From: Marsupella aquatica | Lineage: Eukaryota; Plantae; Marchantiophyta | Direction: 5' to 3' | DNA: 64,000 nucleotides | Assembly: GCA_973895155.1 (NCBI GenBank) | Contig: OZ316898.1 | Coordinates: 35,540-99,539 of the forward strand | Part shown: in pieces, positions 9,474 through 64,000 of the stretch | Position numbering within the stretch: the stretch's first letter is position 1 | Layout of the letters: every line of letters starts with the position of its first letter | The notes under the pieces: model-generated | What the model was told of the DNA's origin: nothing | The model's input: only the letters and a program-made list of their open reading frames with translations | Database searches by the model: none | Position numbers and translations under genes: made by a program

Positions 9474-9915
9474 ATAGCATCTAATTTTTTTTTTCAGTTT
9501 GGAGTTAAGGTAGGATAATTGGAGTACGGCTTTCAGACAAAGAAATTGACTTCCAATGTTGCGTTTTTAGCCCCACCCCACATCAGTAACTGCCACCGAT
9601 TCAAATCACACCATAATTTAAACTTCGGATCCTCTGAATAGTCCACGAATCCTTACGGAAAACACACAATCCGTATATAATTGATTAGTGACACTATCGG
9701 AGAGGCATGAATCACTTTGAAATAGTGTTTTCCCGTTCAAATTCGACTCAATTTTTTTTATATCTTATTGTTCCGCCACGGAAATCCTGAGTTTCTTTTA
9801 TCGCCAAGGAAAATCCCGTGGATAAAAAGGCACGAGTGATTGAAGTAATTGAGAACGACATAGATTTGATATTAATCAGAACGCGGACAGTGATTTGTTA
9901 CAGATTTGAGATACT

Positions 9916-35030: not shown

Positions 35031-35310
35031 TTAGTTTCCACCCTAAATTATTCTTGGTGGGGGTCTCTGAGATGGACTCAGGTCATTTGGGCAACAGTAT
35101 TTGTACTCGGCGAGCCTCTCTGAGATGGTAGATTTGTATGGACACACGATCCATACAGAATTACATTGTAAAAACATTGAAAAGTATTGTACGGTCAGTT
35201 TTTGCATGCACTTTTGGGTTCATCCTTGTATTTTGGTGAGGGTCTGACATCGAATGTGGGATAGAACCAATTTGGGTCCTTCATTTGAAACGGAATACCC
35301 TTAATTTCAT

Positions 35311-35738
35311 CCCGTTCGAACAGGCATCCCCAGAAATGTGCCGCTTGATTGACGTTGCTCATACCCTCCTTAGGTCGATCGTCGGTATCTACTCTCTCCC
35401 CGAGTGCTTGCCTAAGCAGCTGACAGTAGTTGGCCTCCCGTAGTCGTCTGCCTAGTTCGTGCTCGCAAATGAGCCACCATCTCCTACAAGCGCTCCTTAC
35501 CCCTCTCCTCTGCCGGTCCTTCTTCCCGTTGATCCTTCCTAGCCGCCGACGCTTAACGCGCCCTAACCCTAATCGAGTTTTCACCCTCAGCGTCCTTACC
35601 TCCGGCCTCGGCCCGGGTTCCATGGTTGCCCCTAATGGTTTATATTTTCCTTGTTTTGTCCCTATACTAAGGTGTTCCTAGGGTGCCTTCCTGCTTTACC
35701 CACTTAACTGGCCGAGTGATTCCTGTCTAGGCATCACA
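35311..35738 (-). mobile_element. Truncated 5' end (~430 bp) of the coding LTR
   Basis: Matches the start of the LTR (TGTGATGCCTAGACAGG) and the first ~100 codons of the LTR ORF (MEPGPRPEVR...FWGCLFER). Confidence 0.9.
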
Positions 35739-36929
35739 TGCACTTATATTCTATCCGCTGCTAACATTGCATCGCAGACCGAGGACCTTAAGAAGAAATT
35801 TGCTCTTAAGGAGGCTCAAGGCGAGCCCCTTTCCAAGGCTGCACAGGACTTAGCAATGCGTGACATGATGAAAGAACAACTTGCTGATTGGAATGTGAAA
35901 GTTCCAAAGATCGGTCCATTACTAAATCCTGAGTTTGGAGACTTTTTCAAGAAATGTGTTGAAATGCATAACTACTGCGAGAACGAGAGAAAGGAGGCCC
36001 AGAGAACAGATGACAAAGGCAGGGGAAATGTTTCTTGTGGTCTTGATCGAGCTCGATTGTTCACTAGTGTGACCTCTTTATCCCCAGAGCTCCGATGTAC
36101 ACTCCTGGAGGCACAGTGTCGTCCTGAGCTTCGGAAAAAATTCTTTCATCCAGGTCAATTCTCAGATGGTGAGACTAAGCTTTGGCTTCATCGTTGGGCA
36201 GTGTGGGAGCAAGTCGAGTCAATTTCGTCTTCCCTCATGTCTGAAATTGTTTCTGAGGTAATGCCTATTGTCCCTGAGTCGAGGATCCTTACGTCTTCAG
36301 AGAAGACGAAAGCTTCGCTAATCCTTGACATTGAGGAGGATTTTGAGGATTTCCAAACTCGTGTGAAAACTCATTTTTTCAAGCAGATTTGGCCACCCAA
36401 GACAGGAGAGAAGGTAGACATTAAATTGTTTTGGAGGAGAGCAAAGAGATACCCGTATCGATTTTTTGTAGACAGAGAAGTAGCAGACAAATTTTACTGG
36501 TGGTCCTACCCAGCCTGTTTCTCCCCATGGATAGCTGGGGTTAAAGAGGACCCTACAAGTGATAAGTTTGGGAATATTGTATGTTTCCTTGCTAGGGAAG
36601 TGAAGCTCCGAGGAGATTGAGCGAGTGGGAGGTTCTTCATTGTCCATGGTATTTGGACTTGGACAAATGGTCTGTGACATTTGACACTGCAGAGAAAGCA
36701 ACTCTTCACATGATCAATCGAGGATTCCTTCCGGAATCTTACATCTCCGAGTCCAAATAGGCACCCACTGATGCTGAAGTTGGTGGTTGCGAGGCGATGG
36801 AAAAAGCTTGTCTTGGTGTAGCTGCCATAGTGGATAGGAGTTGAGCACGGAAGCCAAGAAAAGGAGCATTGAAGGACACATCCAAAGATGGGTCCCAGAT
36901 TTCCGGAAAGCCAAGTAAGTCTGTTAATT

Positions 36930-39224: not shown

Positions 39225-41337
39225 AGTAAGTCTGTTAATTGTATGTTACTTTTTATTTTTAAGTCCGGATGTGTGTCGAATATACAGACACTAATGTCTT
39301 TTGCTTCACAGAGAGGAGGAAGGGAGCAGCTTCTGAGAGTTTGAAGAGTGGAGCAGATGATGGTGAGGAACCTCAGTCCCCAGATGCCGAAGTCACAACA
39401 AAGAGCGCAGTGGATTTAGGAAGTATAAAACGTTTGAAACGGAAGCGGAACATCCAGATTCTTTCAGATTTGGACGATGAGGAAGTTTCAGTTGCTCAAG
39501 GTGTTGCTCGGATGTGTGGTTTGAAGATGGATGGGCAGCGACATTTCCTGGCTCGTAGCAATTTGACCGATACTGCAAACTCAATTAGTGTAAGTAAAGT
39601 GAGGCCATCTTGGATGGGAGATGGAGATCGATGGATTACTGGGATGTCGAAGAGCGTAGAGTGCCCGAACCATGTCGTAATTAATGGAAAGCCTTATGCT
39701 GGGATTGGAGCACATTTGGGATTCATTTCTCTTCCAATTGGGCATAGAACAAGCGTTACAGACAAACAGGTTCCGTCTTGGAATGTTTGGAGCGAGAAAC
39801 TCCCATATTATTTTTTTGGAGTGATGAGACCAATGCTTTCAGACGACGGATATGTTGCTGTCTTGCACAGCTCAGACTTCAATCACATGAGGTAAATATT
39901 TACGGCAGTCGAGCAAAAAAACAAATTCAAACATGTGCAGCAATATACCGTTTTGTTGTCCACCCCTTTATGGAGGGCAGATATGGATATTGAGGTAGTT
40001 ATCCCTTGAATTTCTTGAGAGTTTTAATGCTAGCGATGTCGCTAACAAAATTATAATTTTCAGCTACCAAACATATCTTGTTTAGGTGTTAATTTTCTAT
40101 TTTCCGACTAAGTTAATGCTAGCGAGCTCACTAACAAAGTTAGCATTGTTTCTGGTGTATTTTGGTTTTTATGCAGGTGTGCACTCTCATCCTGGATGTT
40201 TTTTGTCGGGTGGAATTTAGTGCAAAGATTCCTAAAGACCCAGCGTATGTTCCATTGACGTCTTTGGAAGATGCAAGACATAAGTCAATGTTGAGTGTTT
40301 GTTACCCTAAGACTGACCCCTGTCCAGAAGCGGCTGTTGCTGGATCGAAAAGGCTTTCAATTGGGTTCATGCAAGCCGTGATGGAATTCCTCACGAAGCC
40401 CAAAGATATAGTCCTTGACTGGACTGTGTGTGACGGTAGCTCGTTTTCTGCCGAAGAATTCTCCGGGAGATTTGTTGTCGGTGTTGAAGACAGGGACATT
40501 CTCCATTGCTGTGCAGAAAAAACTTTAAACAGTGTTCTGGCGAGGCATTCGAGCAAGGCAAAGCAGATTAGGGATCAGCCAGCCAAGGTTAATCAAGACG
40601 CTGGGTCGGATGATGAGTTCACGATTCCAGGGGATGAACAGGCTGGGCCTTCAAGCGAGAAAGACGAATTCGACCTGGAGTAAAGTACTTGGCCTCTTCT
40701 GATGTCGGACTCCCTATTTGGTTTCTTTTGTTTTCTTTATTTTGTTGCTCTTTGTCAACTGATGTTGGTGGTTGCGTCAGTGATAGGAGGGTGGATTGGT
40801 TTTCTGAGGAGAGATTTCGTCTTTGGAGGGAAGTTCAGGAGTCCATTGTGGTTACTCCTGAGAAGCCTTTTACTCTTCCGTGCTATGTTGAGACATCGGC
40901 GAGGCAGGTTGATGAAGATCCTGTTATCTTGACTTGGGAATCGAAAGGACTTCGGTCCATGAGAGGTTCTCGAAGATATCTGGATTGTTCAAAGTTTATC
41001 GACAATGAGGCGGGGACAGTCCGTCAGTATTTAGATGAGTCTGCCGAGTCCACGGAGAGGGAGACCAGTAGCGATCCTAGTAGTAGTGACATCTCTGATG
41101 AATCAGAGGATGAAGTTTATGACTGAACAAGTAAGAGGAAGTAGGACTGGATGTACTGGTCGAAGTTGACTCTTACCGTTTTTCTGTCTTGAAGTTGTTG
41201 GCGATCCACACTTTCAATGTAAAGAGGTTCCATATTTTGATGGGAGTTTCTAGTTTTGGTGATCCTTTTTAGATGATTAAAACGTGTGTGGCTCAAGTAT
41301 GGAATACTTATGAAAATCATGCAGGATTTTTCATTGT

Positions 41338-46155: not shown

Positions 46156-49100
46156 TGTGATGCCTAGACAGGAATCACTCGGCCGGTTAAGTGGGTAAAG
46201 CAGGAAGGCACCCTAGGAACACCTTAGTATAGTGACAAAACAAGGAAAATATAAACAATTAGGGGCAACCATGGAACCCGGGCAGAGGCTGGAGGTAAGG
46301 CTGAGGGTGAAAACCCGATTAGGGTTAGGGCGCATTAAGCGTCGGCGGCTAGGAAGGATCAACGGGAAGAAGGACCGGCAGAGGAGAGGGGTAAGGAGCG
46401 CTTGCAGGAGATGGTGGCTCATTTGCGAGCACGAACTAGGCAGACGACTACGGGAGGCCAACTACTGTCAGCTGCTTAGGCAAGCACTCGGGGAGAGAGT
46501 AGATACCGACGATCAACCTAAGGAGGGTATGAGCAACGTCAATCAAGCGGCACATTTCTGGGGATGCCTGTTCGAACGGGCAACTGAGTACATCAAGACT
46601 TACGAGGACGAGGAGTCAGAAAGGGCAGCTCGAGAACGGCAGGAGCTCGCTCGATTGTGGGAGCTGCAGAAGACGGCTTTCTTAGGAGGCGAACTCATCA
46701 AGGACGAGTTCCTGTGGACGCCTACTTCCAATCAACTCGACGATCTTCTGTTTTGCAAAGACAGCGTCGTCGGCATCCGAGAGGCCATCAAGAACTGCAA
46801 CGACATACATTGGGAATTAAAGGGTAGCACGGAAAGGTGGACCCAGGCAACGGTGCTAGGAGAAACCTCCACGGCAGCAGAGATGAAGAGGAAGGGAGCC
46901 GTCAACGATGAAGCCACCCCGGCAAAAAGAACGAGGTCGGTGGCACCAAAGAAGCCAGCCGAGCAGCAGAGCAGGAGGCAGGGAGAAGCTGAAGAGGAGG
47001 AGGTCCATCCCATGAAGGCCATTCCAACCAGGGATGACACCTGGAAGGGCTGGGCGGCAACCCTACCGGTGGAGGTGCAACTACATTTTGCACGGGAGGA
47101 AGATGCATGCTTTACGGCCATGCAGACCAAGAAGTACCAAGGCTTCATGGCCGGATCCGGCTTGGAGGCCTTTGTAAGATTACCATGGCTGAAGCCGGAG
47201 GTACCGGAGTCAGACCTATTAGAATTCGTGGGGTCATGGGAACCCGAGACCAATTGCACGAGGATATATGGGAAGGATTTCTATCTTACTCCCAAGGTGA
47301 TTGCCGAAGTGTTTGGCTTGCCGATGGGCAATAAGACCAAAGTTGATACCAAGAAGACCTTGCCTGACAAGGAGTTCCGGTCGTTCCCCGGGCCATCAAC
47401 GAAGAATGGCTTCTTCCGGAACACCTGCACCAACCCGCACATAGGAGAGATGATCGACTTCTTGCGGGTGACCATGCATTGTAACTTGCCGAGGGCAGAG
47501 ATCGGCAAGGCACAGGTCTATCTGGCAGAAAGGCCAGACCCAAGCCGGGACTACAACGGGTACCTCCTCAACCAATTGAAGAAGATCTTAAAGGAGGAGC
47601 AGCAGGTAATCGGCATGGGGAGCGTGTCGCGGCTTGGCTATCACATGCCGCTGTTGTGCCGGTATGCCAGAGGTCAGACTTTTGCCCCGGTACTTCCCCT
47701 GCAGGTAAGGGCACCCGAGGAAGCTCCAACGCCGAGGCCGTTGGCTGAGAAGCCTCAACCACCTGTTAGTCCTACGATCGAGCAGGTGTTTAGGCCCAGG
47801 AAGGAAGACTTGCCGATGCAGCAACCAGGCATGCAGAGTCTGCTGAAACTACTGGAGAAAGAAAAGAAATCGGCATCGGCAACAACAACGGCAACGGCAA
47901 CAATGCAGGACACTACTACAGAGGTAGGCCTACACCGGCTCACAAGAGAAAACCCCTTTGCTGGAGACAAGGAGAGAATCAGGCCGGAATCCAAGCCAGG
48001 TGTTCGAATGTACGTGGGAACCTCAAGCTCCAAATTTGAGGCAGAATTGCCTGAAGCTCCTACCGAGGAAGAGGAGAGGGAGAAGCCGGACGTCCAAGAG
48101 GTAGAGGAGGCAGTGGAGGACTGCAGCCATGATAATTCCGGCTATGGGTCGGACCATCACGTTCCAGGAGTAAGGACCTGTGGCCGGTTTGTCCCCACAC
48201 TTCCAAGGGTAGTGCGAGGGGACCCCAACCAGCAGAGTAGCCCTGAGTCTCCCCCACCAGATGTTGCTCCCCCGAGCTTCGACGGCATAAAACAGACGGT
48301 GCAGGAATTTCAGGAGCGAATCAAGCAGGAGGAAGAGGCCGCCCTGGCTAAGGAAAAGGATTTACCAGGAGGAGATTGGCCGGAGGACATCAGGCGGCTA
48401 GCCGAAAAAGGAAGCAAACCTCTAGCCACGATTGAAGAGATCCGCAGGACGGCTTGGGAGCAGAGGCCACGATGGGCGATGCCGATCACTTCTACTTACT
48501 CCACCTACGCTAAGAATAGAGCCATGGAGTATGGTGAGATGTGTGGGGAACTTGCGCTCGGCATCTTTGGAGAGGAGTTGGAGGTAGGACCCTTTTTCCA
48601 TAGGGAGCAGTTGGAGAAGCACCAATTAGAAGAAGCGGTGGCTTTAGAGAGAAGCAAGAAGGACGAGGTCATTCGGCGGTTTAGGAGGATGGAAGCCGAG
48701 ATTGAAGATCTAAGGGCGGCCAAGAAAGCCCAAGATGAACTGCGGATTAAATGACATGAGCTGAACATCATGCAGGGGCAGTTGGACACCGCGCAGGCTG
48801 ATAATCAGAATATCAAGGATAAACTGACTCAGACGCAGGAAGAGTTGGCCGACACGATCAAAGAGAGGGAGAAGTGGAAGCAAGAACTGAAGAATACAGA
48901 GGAGGCCCACATAACAGCCAACAGCCGGGCCATGGCGGAGACCCAAAGAAAGGAATGGGCGTTGAAAGGGGAGCTCGAGAAAATCCGCGGAGCCCTTGAG
49001 CAGAAGGAGGTCGAGTTAGGGAAATCCTATCAAGGGATTATGGCGCTGCAGCAGGAGCTTGCGTCCCTGACGGCCAGCTTCAAGGCCGACCTAAGGGAGA

Positions 49101-50850
49101 AGGACGAGATGCTCGAACAGACTTACGCCAAGATGAACCAGATGGAGTCTGTCATCATTGCAGAGCTCGACAAGGAGCTAAGAGCAACCCAGGAGGAGAG
49201 GGCTACCTTGAAGAAGGAATTGGAGGAAGCCCACAGGGAGCAGGAGGAGGCCAAAAACGAGCTGGAGGGGGCACGTAAGGACCTGGATGAAACCCAAGAG
49301 GAGTTGGAGGAAATCACGAGGAAGATGGAGAACCTACAGCGGCGGGCCGACAACCAAACAGAGCGGCTGAAGAAACAAGCCGCAGTATTTAAATGCTTAG
49401 CTGCAGCAGGTCCATCTCCCGTTGGGACAAACCAGTTACCAGGGGTGGTAATTGCCGAAGGACAAGCCGCGCCACCTGCACCAGTGCCGGAAGTAAGTGG
49501 GAAGGGGAAGGGACCAGCTGCCGAGCCACCAACGAAGAAGAAGCGGAAACCTTCAGGGTCAAGGAGTAATACGACTTCACAGGCCGTGGTGATCAAGGAG
49601 GTAGACCCAGCACCGACCCCAGACAGGGTCACGGCTAAGGATCCAACTACCCTAGGGGAAGGGGAGGCCGAAGCCGTGGGAGTGGCTGAGGCCGAAGCCG
49701 AGGGAGTGGCTGAAGCCGAAGCCGTGGGAGTGGCTGAAGCCGAAGCCGTGGGAGTGGCTGAGGCCAAAGCCGTGGGTATTGCCGAGGCCGGTGTCGAGGC
49801 TGAAGCCGAAGGTGGACCCAGTCAGGCCGATGGAGAGTTGACTCGGTCAAGGGCAGGTAATCTGTCAGTAGGCGGGCCAACGGCAGTGGCTGAGGAGGAA
49901 GTGTTGGGGGCGTCCATTGAGGATCCACCACCGGTGTCGTGACGGTGCAAGGGCGCCGTTCCTTTTAGGGAGGGCGGAGGCGTGAGTGGGCAGGGCGGGC
50001 ACGGATCTCCACGTTTAGGATTAGGATCAGAACCAGGAACGGCCCTGACACTTAGCTTAGTGGGATTGCGGTCCCACTGGTAGGAGCAACACTTGTGCTC
50101 CTGCCTTGCTGTACATAGGTAGATTCGGGCAAGTAGATTACTGTTAAGTAGATTAGGCTTACGATGCAAAGAATGGCGGATCCACTACCAGGATAAGTAC
50201 CTGGGCAGCGGGGAGCTCAGGGCCTCTTCTTTAGCAAGTTTTTAGTTTGCACCAGCCGGGCTGGGATCAAGTAGTACGAGAAGCTCTCGGTTAGTCATAC
50301 AGTGACCCTTGTGTATATTCATGTTTCCTCATGCCTAAGAGCTGAATAGAGTTGGCCTCACGGCTTAGTTCGCAGAACTTGTGTATGAGATGTACTGTTT
50401 GTATGGCAAGTGCATGGTATGACTCAGTCAGAAGGAGTCATTTTGCTATTTGTGTGTCGCATTAACTTGTGTGAAGAGTGCCCACATCAACAGAAGGAAG
50501 GAAAGTAAGCAGGGGAGTGAGAGTTGGATGTGTCGAGCTGAGAGAGGTCTTAGCGGCTTAACCAAGCCTATTGGGGATCATTCCGGCGGCGGAATCCAAA
50601 CATACCTAACAAGACGGAGGGGAAGACAGGGGAAGACAGGGGAAGGCCTATATTAGGCCGGCTACGTATCTCATGACTCGATGAAGGATCTGTCCAGTAT
50701 ATGTGTGTAAAATCTTAATAGTAGTAGTAGAAGGTTAGCAGCGTCCCATGCCGCTAAGCCGCGGAAACAGCCTCGCCAAGCTCGAAACCTGCGGGAATCG
50801 GCTTGAGCTGGGGGGTTTCTTGGGTTTAGGGAGCCATGGGACGCACCACA
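46156..50850 (+). repeat. 5' LTR (4,695 bp)
   Basis: Nearly identical to 57075-61730; the length difference is explained by 48-bp, 10-bp and 1-bp indels. Confidence 0.95.
46271..49942 (+). pseudogene. 5'-LTR copy of the LTR-encoded protein, with one CGA-to-TGA nonsense mutation at 48752
   Basis: ORFs 46232-48754 and 48770-49942 are in the same frame and match 57151-60813. Confidence 0.92.
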
Positions 50851-50854
50851 TTTT

Positions 50855-50872
50855 TGGTGCTAGATGGAGGGG
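50855..50872 (+). promoter_or_regulatory. PBS, probably tRNA-Asn type
   Basis: TGGTGCTAGATGGAGGGG, 4 nt after the LTR; close to the complement of the plant tRNA-Asn 3' end (TGGCGCTAGAAGGAGGGG, recalled sequence). Confidence 0.65.
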
Positions 50873-50919
50873 GCATTTCTTAAGCCGTGAGATATGAAGT
50901 TAGAACGGAAGCGTAGGTA

Positions 50920-53913
50920 ATGACTGACCTTACGCCGAGGGAAGAAAGAGTGATTCAACGGGAGAGAGCTCGACTGCAGCAGCTCGCCGGGTGGCATGAT
51001 ACACAGCGACTGAGAGGGGCAGAAAGAGCTGGTAGCTCCGAAACTGGAAGTGGCGTCGAAGAAGACATACCAGAAGAAGAGTCGGTAAGGAGAAGTGAGT
51101 CTCCAACCGACATGGGGGAACCAGAGGCACGGCCAGACGAGAGGCCAGGGACCAGATTGAGCCAGCGGTCGCGCATACATTACAAGGCATTTCATGGGAG
51201 AGGAGATGAGGATCCGGACGAATGGGTGGATGATTTCGAGGGAACCGCTGCAGCAAATGGAGAATCGGCCATCAAGATGCAGATTCTTCCCGGCCTGTTC
51301 AAGGGTGAGGCTAGGCCTTGGTACAGAGCATTAGATGTGGAAGATCAAGCCATCTGGGATATCTTCAAAACACTCTTTGTTAAGGAGTTTCGACCCATTG
51401 GAACTTCAGAACTAGCAGTGCTGAAGTTGGGACAACTTCGGTTCAAGGAGAACAAATCCTTCAGGAAGTTCTTGGAACGCTTTCAGAAACTGGTAAGACG
51501 TACAAAGACCAATGCATCTGAAGGTATGCAACTTCAATGGTTAGTGAATGCTTTGCCACAGAAGATGAGTTTGCAATTAGGAAGGAGAACCCGGAGACTT
51601 TAGCCGAAGCAATTAAGGATATTCAATTATACATTAATGCAGATATCACAAGCCAGAAGAAACAGCTTAAGTCTGAGAGTTCCTCATCAGAGGAGGGATC
51701 ACCCCATAAGAAAAAAGATAAGAAGAAGAAACATTCCAAGAAGTCTAGAAGTGATAAGTCAAGCTCGGATAGTGGGAGTAGCAAGAGTGAGTCATCTTCT
51801 AGTTCTGAAGAAGAAAAAAACTAGGAAAAGGAAGGGCAGAAGGAGAGGGAAGACGAAAGTCAAGATGGAGGCTAAGCCACCAGATAACATCGTAGCCCTT
51901 ACCGAGCAACTTAAGGCTATCATTGCAGAGGTAAAACCAAAGAAGAAGGTAGTACAGGAGGATAGCTCTGTATGGTGTGCCTTATGTTATAAAACCGGAC
52001 ACCATAAAGATGCGTGTCCTAAGCTTAATACTAATCATGTTCGGCATGTGGCCGAGATCAGACCATGTCAGGGAGAAGTAGAGTACTTTTTGGGAGATGC
52101 CGCTGATAGTGTTTTCGGCATCAGTGAGACTGGAGCACGAGACCTATCCAACAGACCTGCATCTCTGTGGTCAGGGTTAAGGAACAATCCAGGAGAGATG
52201 TATCCTCGGATTATTCAGAACACGTCAGTACCTCCTAGGCCGAATGTGCAAAGATTTGCGGCGTGCTATAATTGTGGTCAACCTGGCCATTTTGCTAGAG
52301 AATGCCCGAATGCACGCAAACAGGGTGATGGACAACCAGCTCAGCTATGTATGGGATGCCGACAGGAAGGTCATATGCTAGGGCAATGTCCTACTTGGTT
52401 GGCAGGCCTGGCCGCAAATCATAAGCTTTTGCCGATCAAGATCTTACCGCCAGGTACTACCCCCGGAGGAGTTCAAATCAACCACATCGAACTAGGATGG
52501 CAAGAGGATGCCGAGGCAGAGTTCGTACCATCTGATGATGAGGCCGAAGCCCTATCAACCTTCTCAGAGGAGGATTTAGATCATGATTGCTACCGGGTCT
52601 CTACTCGATCTACCAGAAGGAAGGAAAGGTGGGATGGGCTGGCCAAAAATAAAGGGAAGGTTACGGAGGAAAGGATCGACTCTTCGTCAACATCAACAGA
52701 AGGAGAAGGGAGGGCTCCGGCAATACAGGTAAGCCATGAGCCCACCAGTGAAACCAATCCTTCACAAGATAGCGACTTCAATCGAGATCATCCTAAGTTG
52801 TTCTACCCCTCTGTTACGGCTAGTGTTAAGGAACAACTAAGAGAATTAGAAACCCTGGAGAATACCGAAGCCATTGCCAAGGATGTAAAACGAGCAAAAG
52901 CATTGTTTGCTTCGGAAGACCCAACAGCTGTGGAGACTAGCGTGGCAAAACTGGCCGAATCCAAGACGGAAACACCACCAGAAGAGAAGTCGATTGTTCC
53001 CTATGACCTGGCTAAAGATGTACTAGAATCTAGAGTCTCGGCAACAGTAGGTCAACTATTGAAAAATAGCCCGTACTTCCGGAAGCAATTAAGGAAGGCT
53101 ATTCTCGGCAAGCCGAGATTACCCAAGGTAGCAACCAGATCCGACGTACTAATGATAGAAGAAGATCAAGGAGCCCCAGCATTACCATTAATGATTCAAG
53201 GAGAATTATTACTACGGGTACCCATCGATGGAGGATCAGGGGTATGTATTATGATTGATTCAACAGCAAAAGGGTGGGGTCTAACACCGGAGATGACTGG
53301 AAGAGTGTTGAACATGGCCAATGGATATCAGGTCATTCCGACGGGAGTGTTAACCGGCATCAAGACAGAGATAGGAGGTATCTTCTTTAGCATTAACTAT
53401 GTAGTAATGAAGCCGGTAAATCCTACGTCATTCCGGCTATTGATTGGTAGGCCATGGCTGTACCTAGCCGAGGTAATAGAAGATTGGGGTAAAAAGCAGT
53501 TCACTTTCGGGACCCCCTCTATCACGGTATCCTGGGACACTAAGGATGACCGTAGGAAAAGCATAAGGGAAGTAGATGGGTACGACAGTGGACTGGAGTC
53601 AGCCGATGAAGTACGTTGGTTAGAATGCCTCACTAACCTAACCGAAGAAGGTGTCTTTGGACTAGAGGTACCCCCCAGCGGATTATGGCAAGAACCAATG
53701 GAAGGTGACTTGGAAGAAGAAGACAAAGAGGTCGAGGACTGCTTTACAATAGAATCCACCTTTTTAGCTGCAATTCCGGAGGAAGTAAAGGATGTAGACC
53801 AATTGGATGAAACGGCTAAGTGGGGAGCAGTAGCAGGGACAGTGGATTTTCTGCAGGCGTTGTGGCAGAGCCGACGGGGTCCACAACGCCATCGATCATC
53901 GGCAAGGAATTAA
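50920..53913 (+). CDS. Gag (three CCHC knuckles) plus aspartic protease, with two compensating frameshifts around 51570-51820
   Basis: FHGRGDEDPDEW capsid-like motif; CALCYKTGHHKDAC, CYNCGQPGHFAREC, CMGCRQEGHMLGQC; IDGGSG...LLIGRPWL. Confidence 0.85.
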
Positions 53914-56900
53914 ATACCAAGGGATCGGCATACAAGCCGATTACGAGGGCAGAACAAATTGAGGCCCTATTAGAAGCCGAGAGAGCACAGCGGCCTAACT
54001 CTCAGGAGCAAGAGGTGGATGAGATGGACAGACACGATCTAGAGCCAAGGCAGGAAGGGGAGCCGACCACTAATTCAAAACCGAATAGACCGGTAAGGGG
54101 ACAATCTATGGACACCAAGGAAGGGACCGACTCGGCTAGTCCAGCCGAGATCCCAGTTTATGGAGGTATGAGATTAGAGAGACTGGAAGCCGAACTGGAC
54201 CCGAATTTGAAGAAGCAGATTAATATGATCCAAGCACGGCAATATCGGAAGCTCGACTTAGGAGAGGGAAGAGAACTGAACTTAGGGAGAAACCTAGCAC
54301 CTGAGCTCGAGAAAGAGATCAGTGACTTATTGATTGAATTTCAGGATGTGTTTGCATGGAGTCACCAAGATCTAAAGGGAGTAGATCCAACACTAGGGGA
54401 ACATCGAATTGATCTCATGTTAGGAGCCAAATCATTTTGACAACCAATTCGAAGGATGAACCCGAAGTATTCCCTGCTGGTCAAAACAGAAATCGACAAA
54501 CTAGTGGAAGCTGGATTCATCACTCCAGTCCTGCATTCAGACTGGGTGTCTCCAATTGTGATAGTTCCCAAGAAAGCTGGACCCGATGGTAAACCCAAGA
54601 TCCGGGTTTGTCAGGATTACAGGAAGCTGAATGAAGCAACATTAAAAGACCATTTTCCTTTACCGTTTACTGATATGGTACTAGACATGGTAGCCAGTCA
54701 TGAACTATATTCATTCATGGATGGATACTCTGGTTATAACCAAATCAGGATTCGGCAGGAAGACCAAATCAAGACGGCCTTCATCACGGAATGGGGGATC
54801 TATGTCTTCAATCGTATGCCGTTTGGACTCTGCAACGCACCAGCTATGTTCCAACGATTAATGGTGAACATTTTTCATGATTACTTGAGAAAGTTCATGG
54901 AAATCTTCATTGATGACTTTGCAGTATTCGGGAAGGCATCGAAACATGCTAAATACCTCAGGAAAACCTTCATGAGATGTAGAGAGGTGGGTCTCAAGTT
55001 ACACCCAGATAAATGTTTTTTTGCAGTAACCGAGGGGGTGCTACTAGGTCACAAGGTATCAAGGAAGGGCATTGAGATTGACAAAGGTAAGCTAGCAGTA
55101 TGGCTAGATATCATGCAACCTAAGAACATAAAGGATGTAAGATCCTTCTTGGGATGCATTGGTTACTATCGCCGGTTCATCAAGGATTTTGCCAAGCTGG
55201 CTTTACCATTAACCAATATGCTCAAGGCAGGAGCAGACTTCGAACCCACACCCGAACGAGTCACAGCGGTGGTAGAATTGAAGCAGATGTTAGTAGAGGC
55301 CCCAGTCATGATAGCACCGGACTGGAACAAAGATTTTCATGTTTTTGTAGATGTCTCGGGCTTCTGTATTGGCTCAGTACTAAGTCAGTTGGATGAGAAA
55401 GGAAGGGACCATCCCATATACTTCGCAAGCCGTCAGCTTGCCGATGCCGAACGTAACTACTCTACCACGGAAAGAGAAGCATTAGGAGTCATTTATTCTT
55501 GTAAAAAGTTTAGGCATTATTTACTAGGGTACAAGGTAATCTTTCATACTGATCATGAAAGTTTGAAGTACCTAGTCAATAAGCCGGACCTTACAGGCAG
55601 AGTAGCAAGATGGATTTTGCTATTACAGGAGTTTGACTATGAGCTGAGGATCAAGCCGGGAAAGTTACATGCCAATGCCGACTTCTTTTCAAGGATCACA
55701 GGTAAACCTGCCACGGATTGCATCGATGATCGATTCCCCGACGAGGAGCTATTCGTTGTGGAAATAGCTGGTACATGGTACCCTGAGATTTTACAATTTC
55801 TCAGCACTTCCAGATTACAGCCAGGATTAAGCCGAGAGCAAGCCGCAGTCTTTGTGCGGAAGGTCAGACAGTATCAGTGCATTAAAGGCATACTGCACAA
55901 GCATGGAATCAACGGCACGATTCAAAGATGTTTGGAAAAGAGAGAGGTAAAACGAGTCCTACGGGCCATGCATGGAGAGGAGGCCGGAGGACATTTTGCC
56001 CCAGTAACCACGTCTAAGAAGATATTAAATGCCGGTTACTGGTGGCCCACCTTGCACAAAGATGTCTATCAGTTTATCAAACAATGCGATCCTTGTCAAC
56101 GAGCGGGAGGACCAAGGGCGTCCACCAGGCATCCACTGCACCCTATTCTACCTCTGGCACCATTCGAGAAGTGGGGTATTGATTACATTGGACCTCTGAA
56201 ACCACTGACCCACCCTCGACGGAACAAGTACATAATCCTGGCTACGGATTATGCAACTAAATGGGTAGAGGCCAGACCAACAACGAAGGATGATGCAATT
56301 ACTACGGCTAGATTCATGTATGAGCAGATCTTCACCAGGTATGGAGCACCCCTAGAATTAGTTAGTGATAGAGGAACCCATTTTTTGAATGATATAATTA
56401 GTCGTTTAAATGAGCAGTATTTAGTTAAACATAGGCCTACTACTCCCTACCATCCAAAGGCAAACGGGTTGACAGAACGAGCAAACGGGATCATAGGAAA
56501 GATATTGAACAAGACAGTAGCTCAGAACAAACTTGATTGGGATGATAAATTGTTTGCTGCTGTTTTTGCTTACAATCTTGCCTATAAATCCACTACCGGT
56601 CATACACCCTTCTTCTTAACCTTTGGACAAGAAGCCCTGGTACCCATGCAACTTGAGATACCGACATTTCAAGTTACAATTGAGGAAAGAGCCTCAACGG
56701 AGGAGAGCCTAAAGGAGCGAGAATATAGGTTAGAAGCTTTAGAGGAAGCGAGAATGATTTCAGCCGAGAGAGTAGAATATAGACAGAATATCATGAAGCA
56801 GCAGTATGATAAAAGGTTAAAAGTAGTTAGTATTCATACCGGTGATCTTGTGCTACTTTATGACAGTAGGTATAGTAGGTTTCCAGGAAAGCTTTACACT

Positions 56901-57086
56901 CGCTGGTTAGGACCCTTTAGAGTAACCATGATGTTCCCCAATGGCTCCGTGCAATTGGCCAACATTACGGGAGAGGTATATCCAGTTCGCATCCATTATG
57001 ACCGCCTCAAGAAATACTATATGGACGAAGATGAAGTTGTTCGCGAGGACGCTTCACAATTAAGTGGGGAGCTATGTGATGCCTAG
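53820..57086 (+). CDS. Pol: RT, RNase H, integrase (-1 frame relative to Gag-PR), with one internal TGA at 54438-54440
   Basis: RVCQDYRKLN, MPFGLCNAPA, FIDDF, FVDVS, TDH, HHCC zinc finger, GIDYIGP/SDRG/NGLTER, WLGPF. Confidence 0.92.
53844..53903 (+). promoter_or_regulatory. Candidate -1 programmed ribosomal frameshift signal
   Basis: In-frame G-GAT-TTT, 5-nt spacer, perfect 10-bp stem GGCGTTGTGG/CCACAACGCC; loop GCCGA can pair with downstream TCGGC. Confidence 0.72.
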
Positions 57087-60000
57087 ACAGGAATCACTCG
57101 GCCGGTTAAGTGGGTAAAGCAGGAAGGCACCCTAGGAACACCTTAGTATAGTGACAAAACAAGGAAAATATAAACAATTAGGGGCAACCATGGAACCCGG
57201 GCAGAGGCCGGAGGTAAGGCTGAGGGTGAAAACCCGATTAGGGTTAGGGCGCGTTAAGCGTCGGCGGCTAGGAAGGATCAACGGGAAGAAGGACCGGCAG
57301 AGGAGAGGGGTAAGGAGCGCTTGCAGGAGATGGTGGCTCATTTGCGAGCATGAACTAGGCAGACGACTACGGGAGGCCAACTACTGTCAGCTGCTTAGGC
57401 AAGCACTCGGGGAGAGAGTAGATACCGACGATCAACCTAAGGAGGGTATGAGCAACGTCAATCAAGCGGCACATTTCTGGGGATGCCTGTTCGAACGGGC
57501 AACTGAGTACATCAAGACTTACGAGGACGAGGAGTCAGAAAGGGTAGCTCGAGAACGGCAGGAGCTCGCTCGATTGTGGGAGCTGCAGAAGACGGCTTTC
57601 TTAGGAGGCGAACTCATCAAGGACGAGTTCCTGTGGACGCCTACTTCCAATCAACTCGACGATCTTCTGTTTTGCAAAGACAGCGTCGTCGGCATCCGAG
57701 AGGCCATCAAGAACTGCAACGACATACATTGGGAATTAAAGGGTAGCACGGAAAGGTGGACCCAGGCAACGGTGCTAGGAGAAACCTCCACGGCAGCAGA
57801 GATGAAGAGGAAGGGAGCCGTCAACGATGAAGCCACCCCGACAAAAAGAACGAGGTCGGCGGCACCAAAGAAGCCAGCCGAGCAGCAGAGCAGGAGGCAG
57901 GGAGAAGCCGAAGAGGAGGAGGTCGATCCCATGAAGGCCATTCCAACCAGGGATGACACCTGGAAGGGCTGGGCGGCAACCCTACCGGTGGAGGTGCAAC
58001 TACATTTTGCACGGGAGGAAGATGCATGCTTTACGGCCATGCAGACCAAGAAGTACCAAGGCTTCATGGCCGGATCCGGCTTGGAGGCCTTTGTAAGATT
58101 ACCATGGCTGAAGCCGGAGGTACCGGAGTCAGACCTATTAGAATTCGTGGGGTCATGGGAACCCGAGACCAATTGCATGAGGATATATGGGAAGGATTTC
58201 TATCTTACTCCCAAGGTGATTGCCGAAGTGTTTGGCTTGCCGATGGGCAATAAGACCAAAGTTGATACCAGGAAGACCTTGCCTGACAAGGAGTTCCGGT
58301 CATTCCCCGGGCCATCAACGAAGAATGGCTTCTTCCGGAACACTTGCACCAACCCGCACATAGGAGAGATGATCGACTTCTTGCAGGTGACCATGCATTG
58401 TAACTTGCCGAGGGCAGAGATCGGCAAGGCACAGGTCTATCTGGCAGAAAGGCCAGACCCAAGCCGGGACTACAACGGGTACCTCCTCAACCAATTGAAG
58501 AAGATCTTAAAGGAGGAGCAGCAGGTAATCGGCATGGGGAGCGTGTCGCGGCTTGGCTATCACATGCCGCTGTTGTGCCGGTATGCCAGAGGTCAGACTT
58601 TTGCCCCGGTACTTCCCCTGCAGGTAAGGGCACCCGAGGAAGCTCCAACGCCGAGGCCGTTGGCTGAGAAGCCTCAACCACCTGTTAGTCCTACGATCGA
58701 GCAGGTGTTTAGGCCCAGGAAGGAAGACTTGCCGATGCAGCAACCAGGCATGCAGAGTCTGCTGAAACTACTGGAGAAAGAAAAGAAATCGGCATCGGCA
58801 ACAACAACGGCAACGGCAATAATGCAGGACACTACTACAGAGGTAGGCCTACACCGGCTCACAAGAGAAAACCCCTTTGCTGGAGACAAGGAGAGAATCA
58901 GGCCGGAATCCAAGCCAGGTGTTCGAATGTACGTGGGAACCTCAAGCTCCAAATCTGAGGCAGAATTGCCTGAAGCTCCTACCGAGGAAGAGGAGAGGGA
59001 GAAGCCGGACGTCCAAGAGGTAGAGGAGGCAGTGGAGGACTGCAGCCATGATAATTCCGGCTATGGGTCGGACCATCACGTTCCAGGAGTAAGGACCTGT
59101 GGCCGGTTTGTCCCCACACTTCCAAGGGTAGTGCGAGGGGACCCCAACCAGCAGAGTAGCCCTGAGTCTCCCCCACCAGATGTTGCTCCCCCGAGCTTCG
59201 ACGGCATAAAACAGATGGTGCAGGAATTTCAGGAGCGAATCAAGCAGGAGGAAGAGGCCGCCCTGGCTAAGGAAAAGGATTTACCAGGAGGAGATTGGCC
59301 GGAGGACATCAGGCGGCTAGCCGAAAAAGGAAGCAAACCTCTAGCCACGATTGAAGAGATCCGCAGGACGGCTTGGGAGCAGAGGCCACGATGGGCGATG
59401 CCGATCACTTCTACTTACTCCACCTACGCTAAGAATAGAGCCATGGAGTATGGTGAGATGTGTGGGGAACTTGCGCTCGGCATCTTTGGAGAGGAGTTGG
59501 AGGTAGGACCCTTTTTCCATAGGGAGCAGTTGGAGAAGCACCAATTAGAAGAAGCGGTGGCTTTAGAGAGAAGCAAGAAGGATGAGGTCATTCGGCGGCT
59601 TAGGAGGATGGAAGCCGAGATTGAAGATCTAAGGGCGGCCAAGAAAGCCCAAGATGAACTGCGGATTAAACGACATGAGCTGAACATCATGCAGGGGCAG
59701 TTGGACACCGCGCAGGCTGATAATCAGAATATCAAGGATAAACTGACTCAGACGCAGGAAGAGTTGGCCGACACGATCAAAGAGAGGGAGAAGTGGAAGC
59801 AAGAACTGAAGAATACAGAGGAGGCCCACATAACAGCCAACAGCCGGGCCATGGCGGAGACCCAAAGAAAGGAATGGGCGTTGAAAGGGGAGCTCGAGAA
59901 AATCCGCGGAGCCCTTGAGCAGAAGGAGGTCGAGTTAGGGAAATCCTATCAAGGGATTATGGCGCTGCAGCAGGAGCTTGCGTCCCTGACGGCCAGCTTC

Positions 60001-61730
60001 AAGGCCGACCTAAGGGAGAAGGACGAGATGCTCGAACAGACTTACGCCAAGATGAACCAGATGGAGTCTGTCATCATTGCAGAGCTCGACAAGGAGCTAA
60101 GAGCAACCCAGGAGGAGAGGGCTACCTTGAAGAAGGAATTGGAGGAAGCCCACAAGGAGCAGGAGGAGGCCAAAAACGAGCTGGAGGGGGCACGTAAGGA
60201 CCTGGATGAAACCCAAGAGGAGTTGGAGGAAATCACGAGGAAGATGGAGAACCTACAGCGGCGGGCCGACAACCAAACAGAGCGGCTGAAGAAACAAGCC
60301 GCAGTATTTAAATGCTTAGCTACAGCAGGTCCATCTCCCGTTGGGACAAACCAGTTACCAGGGGTGGTAATTGCCGAAGGACAAGCCGCGCCACCTGCAC
60401 CAGTGCCGGAAGTAAGTGGGAAGGGGAAGGGACCAGCTGCCGAGCCACCAACGAAGAAGAAGCGGAAACCTTCAGGGTCAAGGAGTAATACGACTTCACA
60501 GGCCGTGGTGATCAAGGAGGTAGACCCAGCACCGACCCCAGACAGGGTCACGGCTAAGGATCCAACTACCCTAGGGGAAGGGGAGGCCGAAGCCGAGGGA
60601 GTGGCTGAAGCCGAAGCCGTGGGAGTGGCTGAGGCCGAAGCCGTGGGTATTGCCGAGGCCGGTGTCGAGGCTGAAGCCGAAGGTGGACCCAGTCAGGCCG
60701 ATGGAGAGTTGACTCGGTCAAGGGCAGGTAATCTGTCAGTAGGCGGGCCAACGGCAGTGGCTGAGGAGGAAGTGTTGGGGGCGTCCATTGAGGATCCACC
60801 ACCGGTGTCGTGACGGTGCAAGGGCGCCGTTCCTTTTAGGGAGGGCGGAGGCGTGAGTGGGCAGGGCGGGCACGGATCTCCACGTTTAGGATTAGGATCA
60901 GAACCAGGAACGGCCCTGACACTTAGCTTAGTGGGATTGCGGTCCCACTGGTAGGAGCAACACTTGTGCTCCTGCCTTGCTGTACATAGGTAGATTCGGC
61001 AAGTAGATTACTGTTAAGTAGATTAGGCTTACGATGCAAAGAATGGCGGATCCACTACCAGGATAAGTACCTGGGCAGCGGGGAGCTCAGGGCCTCTTCT
61101 TTAGCAAGTTTTTAGTTTGCACCAGCCGGGCTGGGATCAAGTAGTACAAGAAGCTCTCGGTTAGTCATACAATGACCCTTGTGTATATTCATGTTTCCTC
61201 ATGCCTAAGAGCTGAATAGAGTTGGCCTCACGGCTTAGTTCGCAGAACTTGTGTATGAGATGTACTGTTTGTATGGCAAGTGCATGGTATGACTCAGTCA
61301 GAAGGAGTCATTTTGCTATTTGTGTGTCGCATTAACTTGTGTGAAGAGTGCCCACATCAACAGAAGGAAGGAAAGTAAGCAGGGGAGTGAGAGTTGGATG
61401 TGTCGAGCTGAGAGAGGTCTTAGCGGCTTAACCAAGCCTATTGGGGATCATTCCGGCGGCGGAATCCAAACATACCTAACAAGACGGAGGGGAAGACAGG
61501 GGAAGACAGGGGAAGACAGGGGAAGGCCTATATTAGGCCGGCTACGTATCTCATGACCCGATGAAGGATCTGTCCAGTATATGTGTGTAAAATGTTAATA
61601 GTAGTAGTAGAAGGTTAGCAGCGTCCCATGCCGCTAAGCCGCGGAAACGGCCTCGCCAAGCACGAAACCTGCGGGAATCGGCTTGAGCTGGGGGGTTTCT
61701 TGGGTTTAGGGAGCCATGGGACGCACCACA
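57075..61730 (+). repeat. 3' LTR (4,656 bp), preceded by PPT TAAGTGGGGAG
   Basis: Match to the 5' LTR; TSD follows at 61731-61735. Confidence 0.95.
57190..60813 (+). CDS. Intact LTR-encoded protein (1,207 aa from the first ATG; 1,220 aa from GTG at 57151): basic N-terminus, PMD-like domain, long coiled coil, low-complexity tail
   Basis: Uninterrupted 3.6-kb ORF entirely within the LTR. LLEFVGSWEPETN...GKDFYLTPKVIAEVFGLP resembles the PMD core. About 250 aa of E/K/L-rich heptads. Confidence 0.85.
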   Translation: MEPGQRPEVRLRVKTRLGLGRVKRRRLGRINGKKDRQRRGVRSACRRWWLICEHELGRRLREANYCQLLRQALGERVDTDDQPKEGMSNVNQAAHFWGCLFERATEYIKTYEDEESERVARERQELARLWELQKTAFLGGELIKDEFLWTPTSNQLDDLLFCKDSVVGIREAIKNCNDIHWELKGSTERWTQATVLGETSTAAEMKRKGAVNDEATPTKRTRSAAPKKPAEQQSRRQGEAEEEEVDPMKAIPTRDDTWKGWAATLPVEVQLHFAREEDACFTAMQTKKYQGFMAGSGLEAFVRLPWLKPEVPESDLLEFVGSWEPETNCMRIYGKDFYLTPKVIAEVFGLPMGNKTKVDTRKTLPDKEFRSFPGPSTKNGFFRNTCTNPHIGEMIDFLQVTMHCNLPRAEIGKAQVYLAERPDPSRDYNGYLLNQLKKILKEEQQVIGMGSVSRLGYHMPLLCRYARGQTFAPVLPLQVRAPEEAPTPRPLAEKPQPPVSPTIEQVFRPRKEDLPMQQPGMQSLLKLLEKEKKSASATTTATAIMQDTTTEVGLHRLTRENPFAGDKERIRPESKPGVRMYVGTSSSKSEAELPEAPTEEEEREKPDVQEVEEAVEDCSHDNSGYGSDHHVPGVRTCGRFVPTLPRVVRGDPNQQSSPESPPPDVAPPSFDGIKQMVQEFQERIKQEEEAALAKEKDLPGGDWPEDIRRLAEKGSKPLATIEEIRRTAWEQRPRWAMPITSTYSTYAKNRAMEYGEMCGELALGIFGEELEVGPFFHREQLEKHQLEEAVALERSKKDEVIRRLRRMEAEIEDLRAAKKAQDELRIKRHELNIMQGQLDTAQADNQNIKDKLTQTQEELADTIKEREKWKQELKNTEEAHITANSRAMAETQRKEWALKGELEKIRGALEQKEVELGKSYQGIMALQQELASLTASFKADLREKDEMLEQTYAKMNQMESVIIAELDKELRATQEERATLKKELEEAHKEQEEAKNELEGARKDLDETQEELEEITRKMENLQRRADNQTERLKKQAAVFKCLATAGPSPVGTNQLPGVVIAEGQAAPPAPVPEVSGKGKGPAAEPPTKKKRKPSGSRSNTTSQAVVIKEVDPAPTPDRVTAKDPTTLGEGEAEAEGVAEAEAVGVAEAEAVGIAEAGVEAEAEGGPSQADGELTRSRAGNLSVGGPTAVAEEEVLGASIEDPPPVS

Positions 61731-61735
61731 GGAAG

Positions 61736-62264
61736 CAGAATTTAGAGATCGACGGTCTGAAGGGAGCCCATCTGAAGAGACCAGTGAAGGGACACTTGCA
61801 CAAGAAGCGTGGAGTGAATCATTCGAAGAAGAAGAAGCTCCGACGGTGCTAGTCATGGCTGCAACACAAAGGGCAAGGTTTCAGTATAAACCTTTCCATG
61901 GGAAAGCTAAGGAGGACCCTGACGAGTGGGTAGAAGACTTTGTTGGAACTGCTGAAGCCAATGGTAAGGATGCTATCAAGTTGACTACATTGGCTGGTGT
62001 CTTGAGAGGAGAAGCTAGGCCATGGTACAAAGGGCTGCCTGCTGTGACAAAGGGTGATTGGAATTTGTTTAGAGTTGCTTTTCTACAAGAGTTTCGGAAG
62101 GTGGGAGAGGAGAGTGAAGCTCTTATCAAGATTGGCCGGCTGAGAATGTCAAGTGAAGAATCAGTTTGAAGTTTTCTACAGAAGTTCCAAAGAGTTGCCA
62201 GAAAGATAGATCCAGCTCTAGATGACTCTATGTTGATGAGATGGTTTGTGTCCTCTCTACCTAA
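61736..62264 (+). pseudogene. Continuation of the host element's gag
   Basis: YKPFHGKAKEDPDEWVEDF...WFVSSLP, homologous to the gag at 50920; in frame with 46068-46155. Confidence 0.8.
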
Positions 62265-64000
62265 TGTGGTGCATCCCATGGCTCCCTAAACCCAAGAAAC
62301 CCCCCAGCTCAAGCCGATTCCCGCAGGTTTCACGCTTGGCGAGGCCGTTTCCGCGGCTTAGTGGCATGGGACGATGCTAACCTCCTCCTACTATTACTAT
62401 TAGCCTTTTACACACATATACTGGACAGATCCTTCATCGAGTCATGAGATACTTAGCCTATAAGTAGTGGGTAATTCCAAAAGCATGAAGAAACTGAAAT
62501 TTTTTAAATTTTTTACGATGTTTAGACTGCAATTATTGCTAACTATAACTAAAACAGCATTCAAAGTTACTAAGTTCCTAAGTTACGAGTTTACTAGTTC
62601 ACTGCTTTACGAGTTACACCTTAAGATTTGGCGACCCTGTGATCATGACATCTTACAACTAGTTCAACGGGACTCCACAACGGATGAAGAGCTCACCTTG
62701 AAAGGGAAGGAATGCAAGACATAGGCGCTCATTACTGACTTCTCTTCCACCTTACCTCTCAAACTCTGCCCAGCTTCAACCGGTATTTCAGAGATGTCAA
62801 ATGGAGACTTTGACCCTTCTATTCCAGGATGATGAGTAGTGATGAGTTCCTGTTTCATTATCCTCAAGTGTATGCTGCTACCTGCAACAACTATGATGTG
62901 ATCGGGATGTACAGAGAAGCTCTTCGTATAGATTCATGTTATTTGATGAAGAGAATGCCTCTGATGTATCCTGAGAGACAACTGAGATGCCTACCTTACT
63001 CCAGAGGATCCCCACGCCAAGCTGAGCTGATAGAGGTTACTCAGAACCGAACTGTTACCCTTGTGGAGTTACTAGAACCAGAGGACATCCGACAGCAAGC
63101 TTGAAGAAGTCTCTAAGTGTTTTTAGTTAGTTTTACCAGTAGTGCATCTTATCTGATTTTTAGAAATGTGTTCTAGAGCTTTAAAAGCTGTCATACTTCT
63201 TTAGTGTATAGTCTATACCTAGGAAAACCACCCGGCAAAATCTCAGAGTTTTCTGACTTATAGTTAGGAAGTTAAAAATAGTTGAATTCATCAAGTCTTT
63301 ACTTTACCGTGATTACGAGTTACGACTTAGCTTTTACTAGTTTAAGAGTTACTAGTTTACGATTACGAGTTCCGATAGACAGCCGATTACGAGTTAATAG
63401 TTTACTAGTTACGAGTTCATACTTAGCCATTTTTCCGGATTTTCACTTACTGAATCGCCATTTTAAAATTTTGAGGGGTATGAAGAGGCATGTCTCTTCG
63501 ACCCTGTGACCTCTCACTCAGTAGATTTTTACTATAAGACCCCTCTACCACTAGTGTAGATGATGGTAAAGTTTAGCAATTTTTGCCTTTCCTTGGTGTT
63601 CTACCAGTTGATCATGAATGTTAAGAGTTCGAGATCAAGCTTGACACCAGGAGAAGACTTTCCTCCTTCTTGTGGTTTAATCCTTTGAATAAATCATGGG
63701 AAGTAAAATTCCAATTGTGTAAATCTTATGAGATCTGATGACAGATTCCTCTTTGGTGACTCATTACAATCTCCTGAGTTCTTGGAGTTAACTCACTGAG
63801 TTTAAGTCTTATTTGAAATTGATGGATTTTCTTTCGTGTTGCTTAGTACCATCTAAATGTTGAAGTAGCTACCTTTTAGATCTTATGTGAGTACCATTTA
63901 GAAAGAAAGGATAAGACATGTTGACGGCATTTTAAAAGAGTACTCTAGTAAGCAATTTAGATCTGAAAAGCAATATGGATTTGAATCCTGAAGTCTTTTC
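62265..64000 (-). mobile_element. Second nested insertion, sharing the terminal ~190 bp of the coding LTR and running out of the window
   Basis: 62265-62458 is a diverged reverse complement of the LTR 3' end (...GCACCACA). Sequence beyond is unrelated and contains GTTACGAGTT repeats. Confidence 0.6.

Follow-up and report, generated by a model that had tools for sequence, protein, structure and literature searches.

The long terminal repeat (LTR) retrotransposons of plants are thought to be mostly encoded in a single open reading frame (ORF), with Gag:Pol ratios set by splicing or in unknown ways. How might an element that changes reading frame between its protease (PR) and its reverse transcriptase (RT) produce its Pol enzymes? 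The question is raised by a 15.6-kb Ty3/gypsy LTR retrotransposon on the plus strand at 46156-61730 of the window, the 64,000-nucleotide (nt) stretch of Marsupella aquatica contig OZ316898.1 that was analyzed here and whose positions are used throughout. The zero-frame ORF of this element (51604..53913, plus strand; PF00098, E=1.2e-8) carries zinc knuckles, an aspartic protease (~53000-53590) and an acidic linker, and ends at the TAA stop codon at 53911-13. Pol, which comprises a linker, RT, RNase H (RH) and integrase (IN), lies in the -1 frame of the same strand (53820..57086; PF00078, PF17917, PF17919, PF17921 and PF00665). The first-pass annotation, made from the letters alone, proposed that Gag-PR is made abundantly and RT-RH-IN by a frameshift placed after the protease. 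Frames, signal and conservation support that proposal at the level of the family, and we consider a programmed -1 frameshift at the PR|RT junction probable in the family of the window element. Since the window copy is broken elsewhere, in both gag and pol, the mechanism is proposed for the family and not for this copy.

The -1 frame is open from 53820, and with the Gag-PR stop at 53911-13 the two frames overlap by 94 nt. The sole in-register heptamer with AAA or TTT as its second triplet within this overlap is G GAT TTT (GGATTTT, 53844..53850; this and the other signal features are on the plus strand). The Gag-PR frame reads GTG GAT TTT (V-D-F) here, so that the heptamer fits X XXY YYZ in the zero frame. 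It is followed by a 5-nt spacer, CTGCA (53851..53855), and by a stem-loop (stem 1, 53856..53890) in which the 5' arm, GGCGTTGTGG at 53856-65, is the exact reverse complement of 53881-90. The resulting 10 base pairs (bp) enclose a 15-nt loop, have pair probabilities of 0.89-1.0 and contribute -17.2 kcal/mol alone. Heptamer, spacer, stem and register were all confirmed in the sequence exactly as they had been annotated. The junction presents features by which programmed -1 frameshifting is recognized: an in-register X XXY YYZ in a 0/-1 overlap and a stable structure 5-9 nt downstream.

This combination is rare by chance. With both strands counted, the window contains 603 heptamers of slippery type. 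Two of these are followed 5-9 nt downstream by a perfect stem of at least 8 bp, and the longest such stem, 10 bp, is the one that follows 53844. When 53820-53980 was subjected to 20,000 dinucleotide shuffles, an in-register heptamer arose in the overlap in 1,728 cases; four of these also had a stem of at least 8 bp, and none had one of 10 bp. Folding of the whole 87-nt segment was modestly unusual (z = -1.83; 10 of 200 shuffles were equally good). A search of Rfam gave two weak matches only (E 1.5-1.6), which were rejected.

The hairpin may further close into an H-type pseudoknot (53870..53903). The loop bases GCCGA at 53870-74 are the exact reverse complement of TCGGC at 53899-903, and the links of the predicted structure are 4, 6 and 8 nt long. 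Folding with ViennaRNA covered nested structures, and the pseudoknot was assessed by complementarity. The complementarity proposed in the first-pass annotation is exact, but the hairpin has better support than the pseudoknot, in which stem 2 is weak (5 bp, duplex energy -6.9 kcal/mol) and a 6-nt link lies between the stems (53875-80). A nested alternative from ViennaRNA (53852-54 paired with 53902-04, and 53893-95 with 53899-901) is disrupted by common variants at 53852, 53853 and 53894. Provided that frameshifting takes place, we lean toward closure of the hairpin into the pseudoknot.

We evaluated the conservation of the signal among family copies, which were contigs from four public runs belonging to two studies and two organism labels and were read as pooled variants, not haplotypes. 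Public runs with the stretch made up eight of the ten rows listed, none of them recorded as RNA. For 53800-53945, the full table of variants at a frequency of at least 1% was obtained from 373 contigs of the four runs, 112 of which were less than 90% alike. Twenty places varied, and no insertion or deletion (indel) was listed. None of the variant places was in the heptamer, in the 3' arm of stem 1 or in either stop codon bounding the overlap. Three fell in the spacer (53851, 53852 and 53853), whose length was constant, two in the inter-stem link, two in the 8-nt link, three at paired places and ten outside the signal. In stem 2, either of the variants (53874, 53900) would still allow pairing, as G-U. 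Within 53833-910, variants occurred at 3 of 37 heptamer or paired places and at 17 of 41 others (Fisher p=0.0008), a contrast that is real near the signal, though range-dependent (over 53844-903, p=0.03; over 53803-940, p=0.28), in part because an upstream copy of a polypurine tract (PPT), described below, is also invariant. In the loose ends of divergent contigs, examined by eye, the heptamer and the 5-nt spacer were retained, and so was TCGGC at 53899-903, while the preceding 8-nt link and the following bases differed; three single changes in stem 1 each left a G-U pair.

The frames themselves are conserved as well. Over 53600-54500 (901 nt; 763 contigs, four runs; 40 of 148 variant rows listed), indels were listed for a single contig only, as three 1-nt losses that sum to 3 and keep the frame. 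Long pieces spanned the junction without gaps at 53702-53976 (run X2) and 53600-54230 (run X3). Copies continuous through PR and RT, which would speak against a frameshift, did not appear: no frame-changing indel was listed in either set of contigs. Site, spacing and frames are thus conserved among the pooled family copies, and the PR/RT frame offset is a trait of the family, not damage to the window copy. Beyond the Gag stop, 22 of the 30 variants among the listed rows fell at third positions of the -1 frame (p=9e-6). Only 4 of these 30 lie in 53914-54150, so the coding constraint on Pol is evident mainly from 54150 onward.

A candidate central PPT may share the conserved block. The sequence at 53817..53828 (plus strand) is a 12-nt exact copy of 57061-72, which belongs to the 3' PPT of the element (57061..57074, plus strand), directly 5' of the 3' LTR. 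The copy lies 115-125 nt from the element midpoint (53943) and 16 nt before the heptamer, and its first three bases are the stop codon that opens the -1 frame. Any such 12-mer copy was found in 11 of 2,000 shuffles of the internal region, and no variant was listed at 53803-32 in the 373 contigs. PPTs in a central position have been described for Ty1, EVADE and lentiviruses (PMC7197481).

We then asked whether relatives share the split between PR and RT. Among named relatives, the closest in Pol come from three liverworts, Calypogeia fissa, Riccia sorocarpa and Marchantia polymorpha, which points to a bryophyte as the likely host. In RT-RH, 68-74% identity to the window element was found for the protein P0139, the P0144 cluster, Calypogeia fissa CAM6094694.1 (P0068) and Riccia sorocarpa proteins, all of them bryophyte gypsy relatives of the non-chromovirus kind. 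A quick tree of search hits only (105 of 250 kept, 145 removed by cover and identity filters) put the window element in one group with P0139 and P0068 (SH-aLRT 95), which the P0144 cluster joins (98); in this tree, which was without named Phygy or Selgy sequences, the element was placed far from angiosperm rows. P0139 is one continuous Gag-PR-RT-RH-IN ORF of 1954 amino acids (aa) whose Pol is 69% identical to that of the window element, and 8 of the 12 members of the P0144 cluster are single ORFs of 1926 aa with 62% identity in Pol. Judged from these sequences, the PR|RT split is special to the window family, its sisters at 69% and 62% Pol identity being continuous. The linkers of P0139 and P0144 are shorter by 70-85 residues: the distance from the end of protease homology to the start of Pol homology is 80 residues in P0139 as opposed to 491 nt in the window element, whose linker is ~250 nt longer and contains the frameshift cassette. 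Because the nearest sisters have a single ORF and a shorter linker, the cassette looks derived within the clade. A heptamer-stem cassette was not found outside this family in the relatives and loci examined. P0068 was rejected as evidence for a common split, its start being a gene-model Met.

Other members of the clade differ in their junctions. In a search that covered protein sequences of up to 1542 aa, 20 of the 25 proteins P0005-P0029 held PR-RT-RH-IN in one ORF without Gag, starting 44-140 residues before the protease region and near an RVSTRSST motif, which suggests a gag|PR break in this branch. The closest DNA locus, L001 (64% identical in RT), has PR and RT in one frame, separated by a single TAG that is followed by CAA TCA (L001:814-822); just 1 of its 136 TAG triplets has this context. 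TAG CAA TCA fits UAG_CAR_YYA, the tobamovirus readthrough consensus (PMC3542737), and a readthrough branch of the L001 type likely exists in the clade. Three of the 150 protease relatives listed (P0274, P0280 and P0305, members of other 50%-identity clusters) terminate precisely at I/V-G-S-K/R-E-L-K, the protein motif of the L001 junction. Taken together, the L001 stop context and these three ends point to the PR|RT junction as a place where the clade meters Pol; apart from the single ORF, at least three ways of metering seem to be in use. An IGKELN look-alike spans the Gag stop in the -1 frame of the window; this resemblance is post hoc and weak.

Further loci added no member of the window family. 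In a metagenome scan from which 80 of at least 565 loci were kept, only L001 and L051 of those kept exceeded 60% identity in RT, and none of the kept loci belonged to the family. Viral contigs contained no relative by protein, and genome contigs gave 0 matches. A pattern match in a viral contig (L081) was without a 3' stem arm and was attributed to chance, and PR/RT frame offsets in the distant loci L028, L050 and L063 had no in-register slippery site and look like decay. Two other distant gypsy elements (L068:3135-3144 and L076:589-595) each have an ordinary U UUA AAC site at gag|pol, and the hairpins that follow the two sites are nearly identical.

Several observations weigh against the frameshift signal or the evidence for it. 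Stem 2 is short, and a 6-nt inter-stem link is long for a compact pseudoknot. The only variant listed in stem 1, at 53859 and with 1-3% of depth, would open a pair in the middle of the stem unless the partner base 53887 changed with it, and this partner change was seen only in one 2-read loose end. Of the conservation and covariation on which the first-pass annotation would have the signal judged, the former follows the predicted pairing, whereas no two-sided compensatory change on one molecule was seen in the pooled variants, which cannot show haplotypes. In run X2, the 3' arm of stem 2 appears to lack 1 nt in one 2-read loose-end line, a loss that would close the Pol frame. To the range dependence of the variation contrast must be added that a dual-coding overlap constrains its letters for other reasons too. 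The runs may include the source of the window itself, and contigs lose rare variants. The nearest sister family, that of P0139, manages without any split. The 5-nt spacer is at the short end of the ranges given in PMC3835772 (6-9 nt) and PMC12789967 (5-8 nt).

Could the two frames be joined, or Pol be made, in another way? An intron across the junction, removed from some transcripts, would join PR to RT in frame and leave the heptamer and stem incidental or as aids to splicing. Ogre provides a precedent, its GAG-PROT being separated from its RT-RH-INT by an intron that is partly spliced (PMC6317226), and in the window two fair donor-like sites occur upstream, at 53705 (8 of 9 consensus places) and 53651 (7 of 9), in a linker longer than that of the single-ORF sister. 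However, purines predominate in the region and T is scarce (12-20%), none of its AGs is preceded by a strong pyrimidine tract, and the best downstream acceptor (54149) is out of frame with the 53705 donor. The frames overlap and remain open, with no stop-rich spacer between them, and splicing would not account for a heptamer that is in register, does not vary and keeps a constant distance of 5 nt from a stem. We regard splicing as unlikely. Separate initiation of Pol, from a shorter transcript or by reinitiation at a linker AUG (the first near 54024), appears less likely still. The -1 frame does have AUG codons before RT, and the Calypogeia fissa P0068 gene model, which is annotation only, starts at a Met ~155 residues before RT; yet with such initiation the -1 frame would have no need to stay open as far back as 53820, nor the heptamer and stem to be conserved, and free Pol would presumably need its own route into particles.

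The split might also be a fixed accident, in which an old 1-nt change divided the ORF and the family spread non-autonomously on the Pol of single-ORF relatives. That the nearest relatives (P0139 and most of the P0144 cluster) have a single ORF and that the window copy has other breaks would fit such a history. Third-position-biased variation of Pol across divergent copies is not expected of a passenger Pol, however, and the split is accompanied by a heptamer-stem cassette that did not arise in any of the 20,000 shuffles. Moreover, the stop at 54438-40 is absent from most of the depth, whereas the frame offset is common. An accident is, in our estimate, very improbable, and the same low probability is assigned to a role of the conserved block in DNA or reverse transcription (a central PPT with a flap, or a packaging or dimerization hairpin) instead of on the ribosome. 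The PPT copy near the element midpoint speaks for the latter, but it accounts for 53817-28 only and leaves Pol without a production route; a DNA-level role would be compatible with frameshifting and not an alternative to it.

Under the programmed -1 frameshift that we prefer, most ribosomes would stop at 53911-13 and yield Gag-PR, with protease made at the level of Gag. The 10-bp hairpin located 5 nt downstream, with its predicted closure into a pseudoknot, would stimulate a minority to slip back one base in tandem on G GAU UUU. The minor product would be full-length Gag-PR-RT-RH-IN, with RT and IN, we infer, amounting to between a few and some tens of percent of Gag-PR, and its transframe sequence would run ...V-D-F and then F/S-A-G-V-V in the -1 frame. 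The gain of the cassette would have taken place inside a PR-RT linker that had expanded, in a lineage with single-ORF families as its nearest sisters.

The nearest parallel in layout is found in alpharetroviruses. Rous sarcoma virus (RSV) and avian leukosis virus encode protease with Gag and reach Pol by a single pseudoknot-driven -1 shift (PMC12789967, PMC3835772), and the window family likewise encodes protease with Gag and is predicted to produce Pol by a single -1 shift. Unlike these viruses, the window element is a plant Ty3/gypsy element without env and uses a different heptamer, and its structure is short (48 nt), in contrast to the very long loop in the RSV pseudoknot. Since the nearest sisters of the window element are single-ORF, the likeness probably arose by convergence. 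The first-pass annotation set the post-protease shift apart from the usual gag/pol junction; in alpharetroviruses it is the normal layout. We consider it an even call whether a bryophyte gypsy family has independently evolved the RSV layout, beside a central PPT, in a clade that repeatedly swapped both the point and the mechanism of Pol metering (single ORF, pre-protease break and UAG-CAR-YYA readthrough).

Among plant elements, Ogre and Retand of the Tat clade are similar in being split at PR|RT and in having large LTRs and extra ORFs. In Ogre, GAG-PROT followed by RT-RH-INT is reported with a spacer in 35% and a single stop in 14% of elements, and in Retand with a single stop in 49% (PMC6317226). 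Unlike the window element, both use an intron or an in-frame stop in place of overlapping frames, have archaeal RNase H (PMC6317226) and belong to angiosperm lineages. Selgy and Tcn1, which are lycophyte and moss elements, show GAG:o:PROT-RT-RH-INT in 65% and 60% of intact elements, respectively (PMC6317226). They share with the window element overlapping frames in Ty3/gypsy elements of non-seed plants, but their overlap is before the protease, and the shift direction is not in the table of that survey. The available text of the same 2019 survey lists no lineage with GAG-PROT overlapping RT as the prevailing form and leaves several, including Phygy, undetermined. A 2016 recoding review, citing a 2003 survey, describes only +1 offsets, in two types of plant elements (PMC5009743, in the part available). 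We found no report of a -1 overlap after the protease in a plant element in the open-access literature; subscription papers may hold one. The mechanism is thus a known one in a layout that is not listed for plant retrotransposons in the available text of PMC6317226.

The heptamer itself has a counterpart in plant viruses. The G_GA first triplet is a tolerated form in some umbraviruses and dianthoviruses, and the identical heptamer G_GAU_UUU, followed by a stem-loop, is used by plant ribosomes in the replicase of pea enation mosaic virus (PEMV) RNA2, an umbravirus (PMC5009743), in agreement with the earlier citation of G-GAU-UUU as a functional site. Umbraviruses and dianthoviruses differ in relying on long-range ALIL pairing kilobases away, and the PEMV2 stop is 3 nt past the site (PMC5009743), as opposed to local pairing and a stop 60 nt on in the window. 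A -1 signal that is short, local and encoded in a plant genome could be tested directly in wheat-germ extract and, if true, would be a host-encoded frameshift element for plants. The sister families form a comparative series in which to study the origin of a recoding signal from a single ORF and the reasons for the occasional production of protease at the level of Gag. In annotation, copies like the window element are scored as frameshifted pseudogenes.

The element was assigned to the Ty3/gypsy LTR retrotransposons by its two LTRs with TG...CA ends, target-site duplication, primer-site motif, PPT and domain order. The 5' LTR (46156..50850, plus strand; ~4.7 kb, TG...CA ends) is 98.15% identical over 4705 columns to the 3' LTR (57075..61730, plus strand), and the target-site duplication is the 5-bp GGAAG. 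A primer-binding-site-like TGG motif (50855..50872, plus strand), read directly from the sequence, begins 4 nt past the 5' LTR. The domain order is GAG-PR-RT-RH-IN by Pfam, the protease being weak there (PF13975, E=0.057) and clear by homology: its region is 36-44% identical to the same region of PR-RT relatives and 39% identical over 628 columns to P0139. The capsid part of gag (50920..51824, plus strand; PF03732, E=1.6e-10) is distributed over the ORFs 50917-51603, 51522-51824 and 51604-53913, with two mutually offsetting frame breaks in the window copy, near 51570 and 51815; the middle piece was likened by eye to the equivalent part of P0139. An A-rich run before the gag stop at 51822-24 looks like a slippery site, but a -1 shift there reaches the wrong frame, and it was therefore treated as a break in the window copy. 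Pol of the window copy has an in-frame stop at 54438-40, ahead of RT; at 54438, most of the depth among aligned family contigs reads a different letter, so this stop is not common to most copies. A Pfam search of Pol gave no chromodomain after integrase at E<=0.01 and no archaeal RNase H, with RH directly followed by IN. The Phygy features (4-bp NCGN, 7.7-10 kb, no extra ORF) also differ from those of the window element (5-bp GGAAG, 15.6 kb, a long extra ORF), and the element was accordingly classed as a non-chromovirus lineage without a name. A search of the window for a second gag-PR-pol copy gave LTR pieces and a related gag, but no such copy.

Unusually, the extra ORF is located within the LTR itself. 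An unbroken sense ORF of 1225 codons (57136-60813) lies wholly inside the 4.7-kb 3' LTR and is thus present twice per element. Its counterpart in the 5' LTR (46217-49942) retains most of the long sense ORF, broken by one stop at 48752-54, and a further counterpart is found at 20220-23666 on the minus strand. The product has a coiled-coil C-terminal half and EAEAVGVA repeats, and its residues 280-500 gave weak Atlas leads to plant transposon clusters of the PF20167/ATHILA type (scores 0.86-0.90). Similarity to the 3' ORF of L001 was not significant (E=0.59).

The element sits inserted in the gag of a related element (61687-62262, 62% identical to P0139 gag), which is followed by a further, inverted LTR-end fragment at 62256-62458. 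Solo or partial LTRs of the same family occur at 19498-23737 and 35311-35743 on the minus strand (~93% and 97% identical, respectively). A Ty1/copia-like gag-pol at 9910-14554, recognized by eye from its zinc knuckle, integrase, RT and RNase H motifs, lies between partly repeated flanks, and its frame changes from integrase to RT, near 12590-12756. Three tandem arrays are found, at 17505-18914 (period 111 bp), 23610-24778 (~122 bp) and 33991-35135 (169 bp), and the 111-bp array contains an open frame of 459 codons on the minus strand. At 28901-30460 and 37166-39415 on the minus strand lie, respectively, an ORF that resembles a kinase (crinkler-type by eye) and a fragment of a LINE-like reverse transcriptase.

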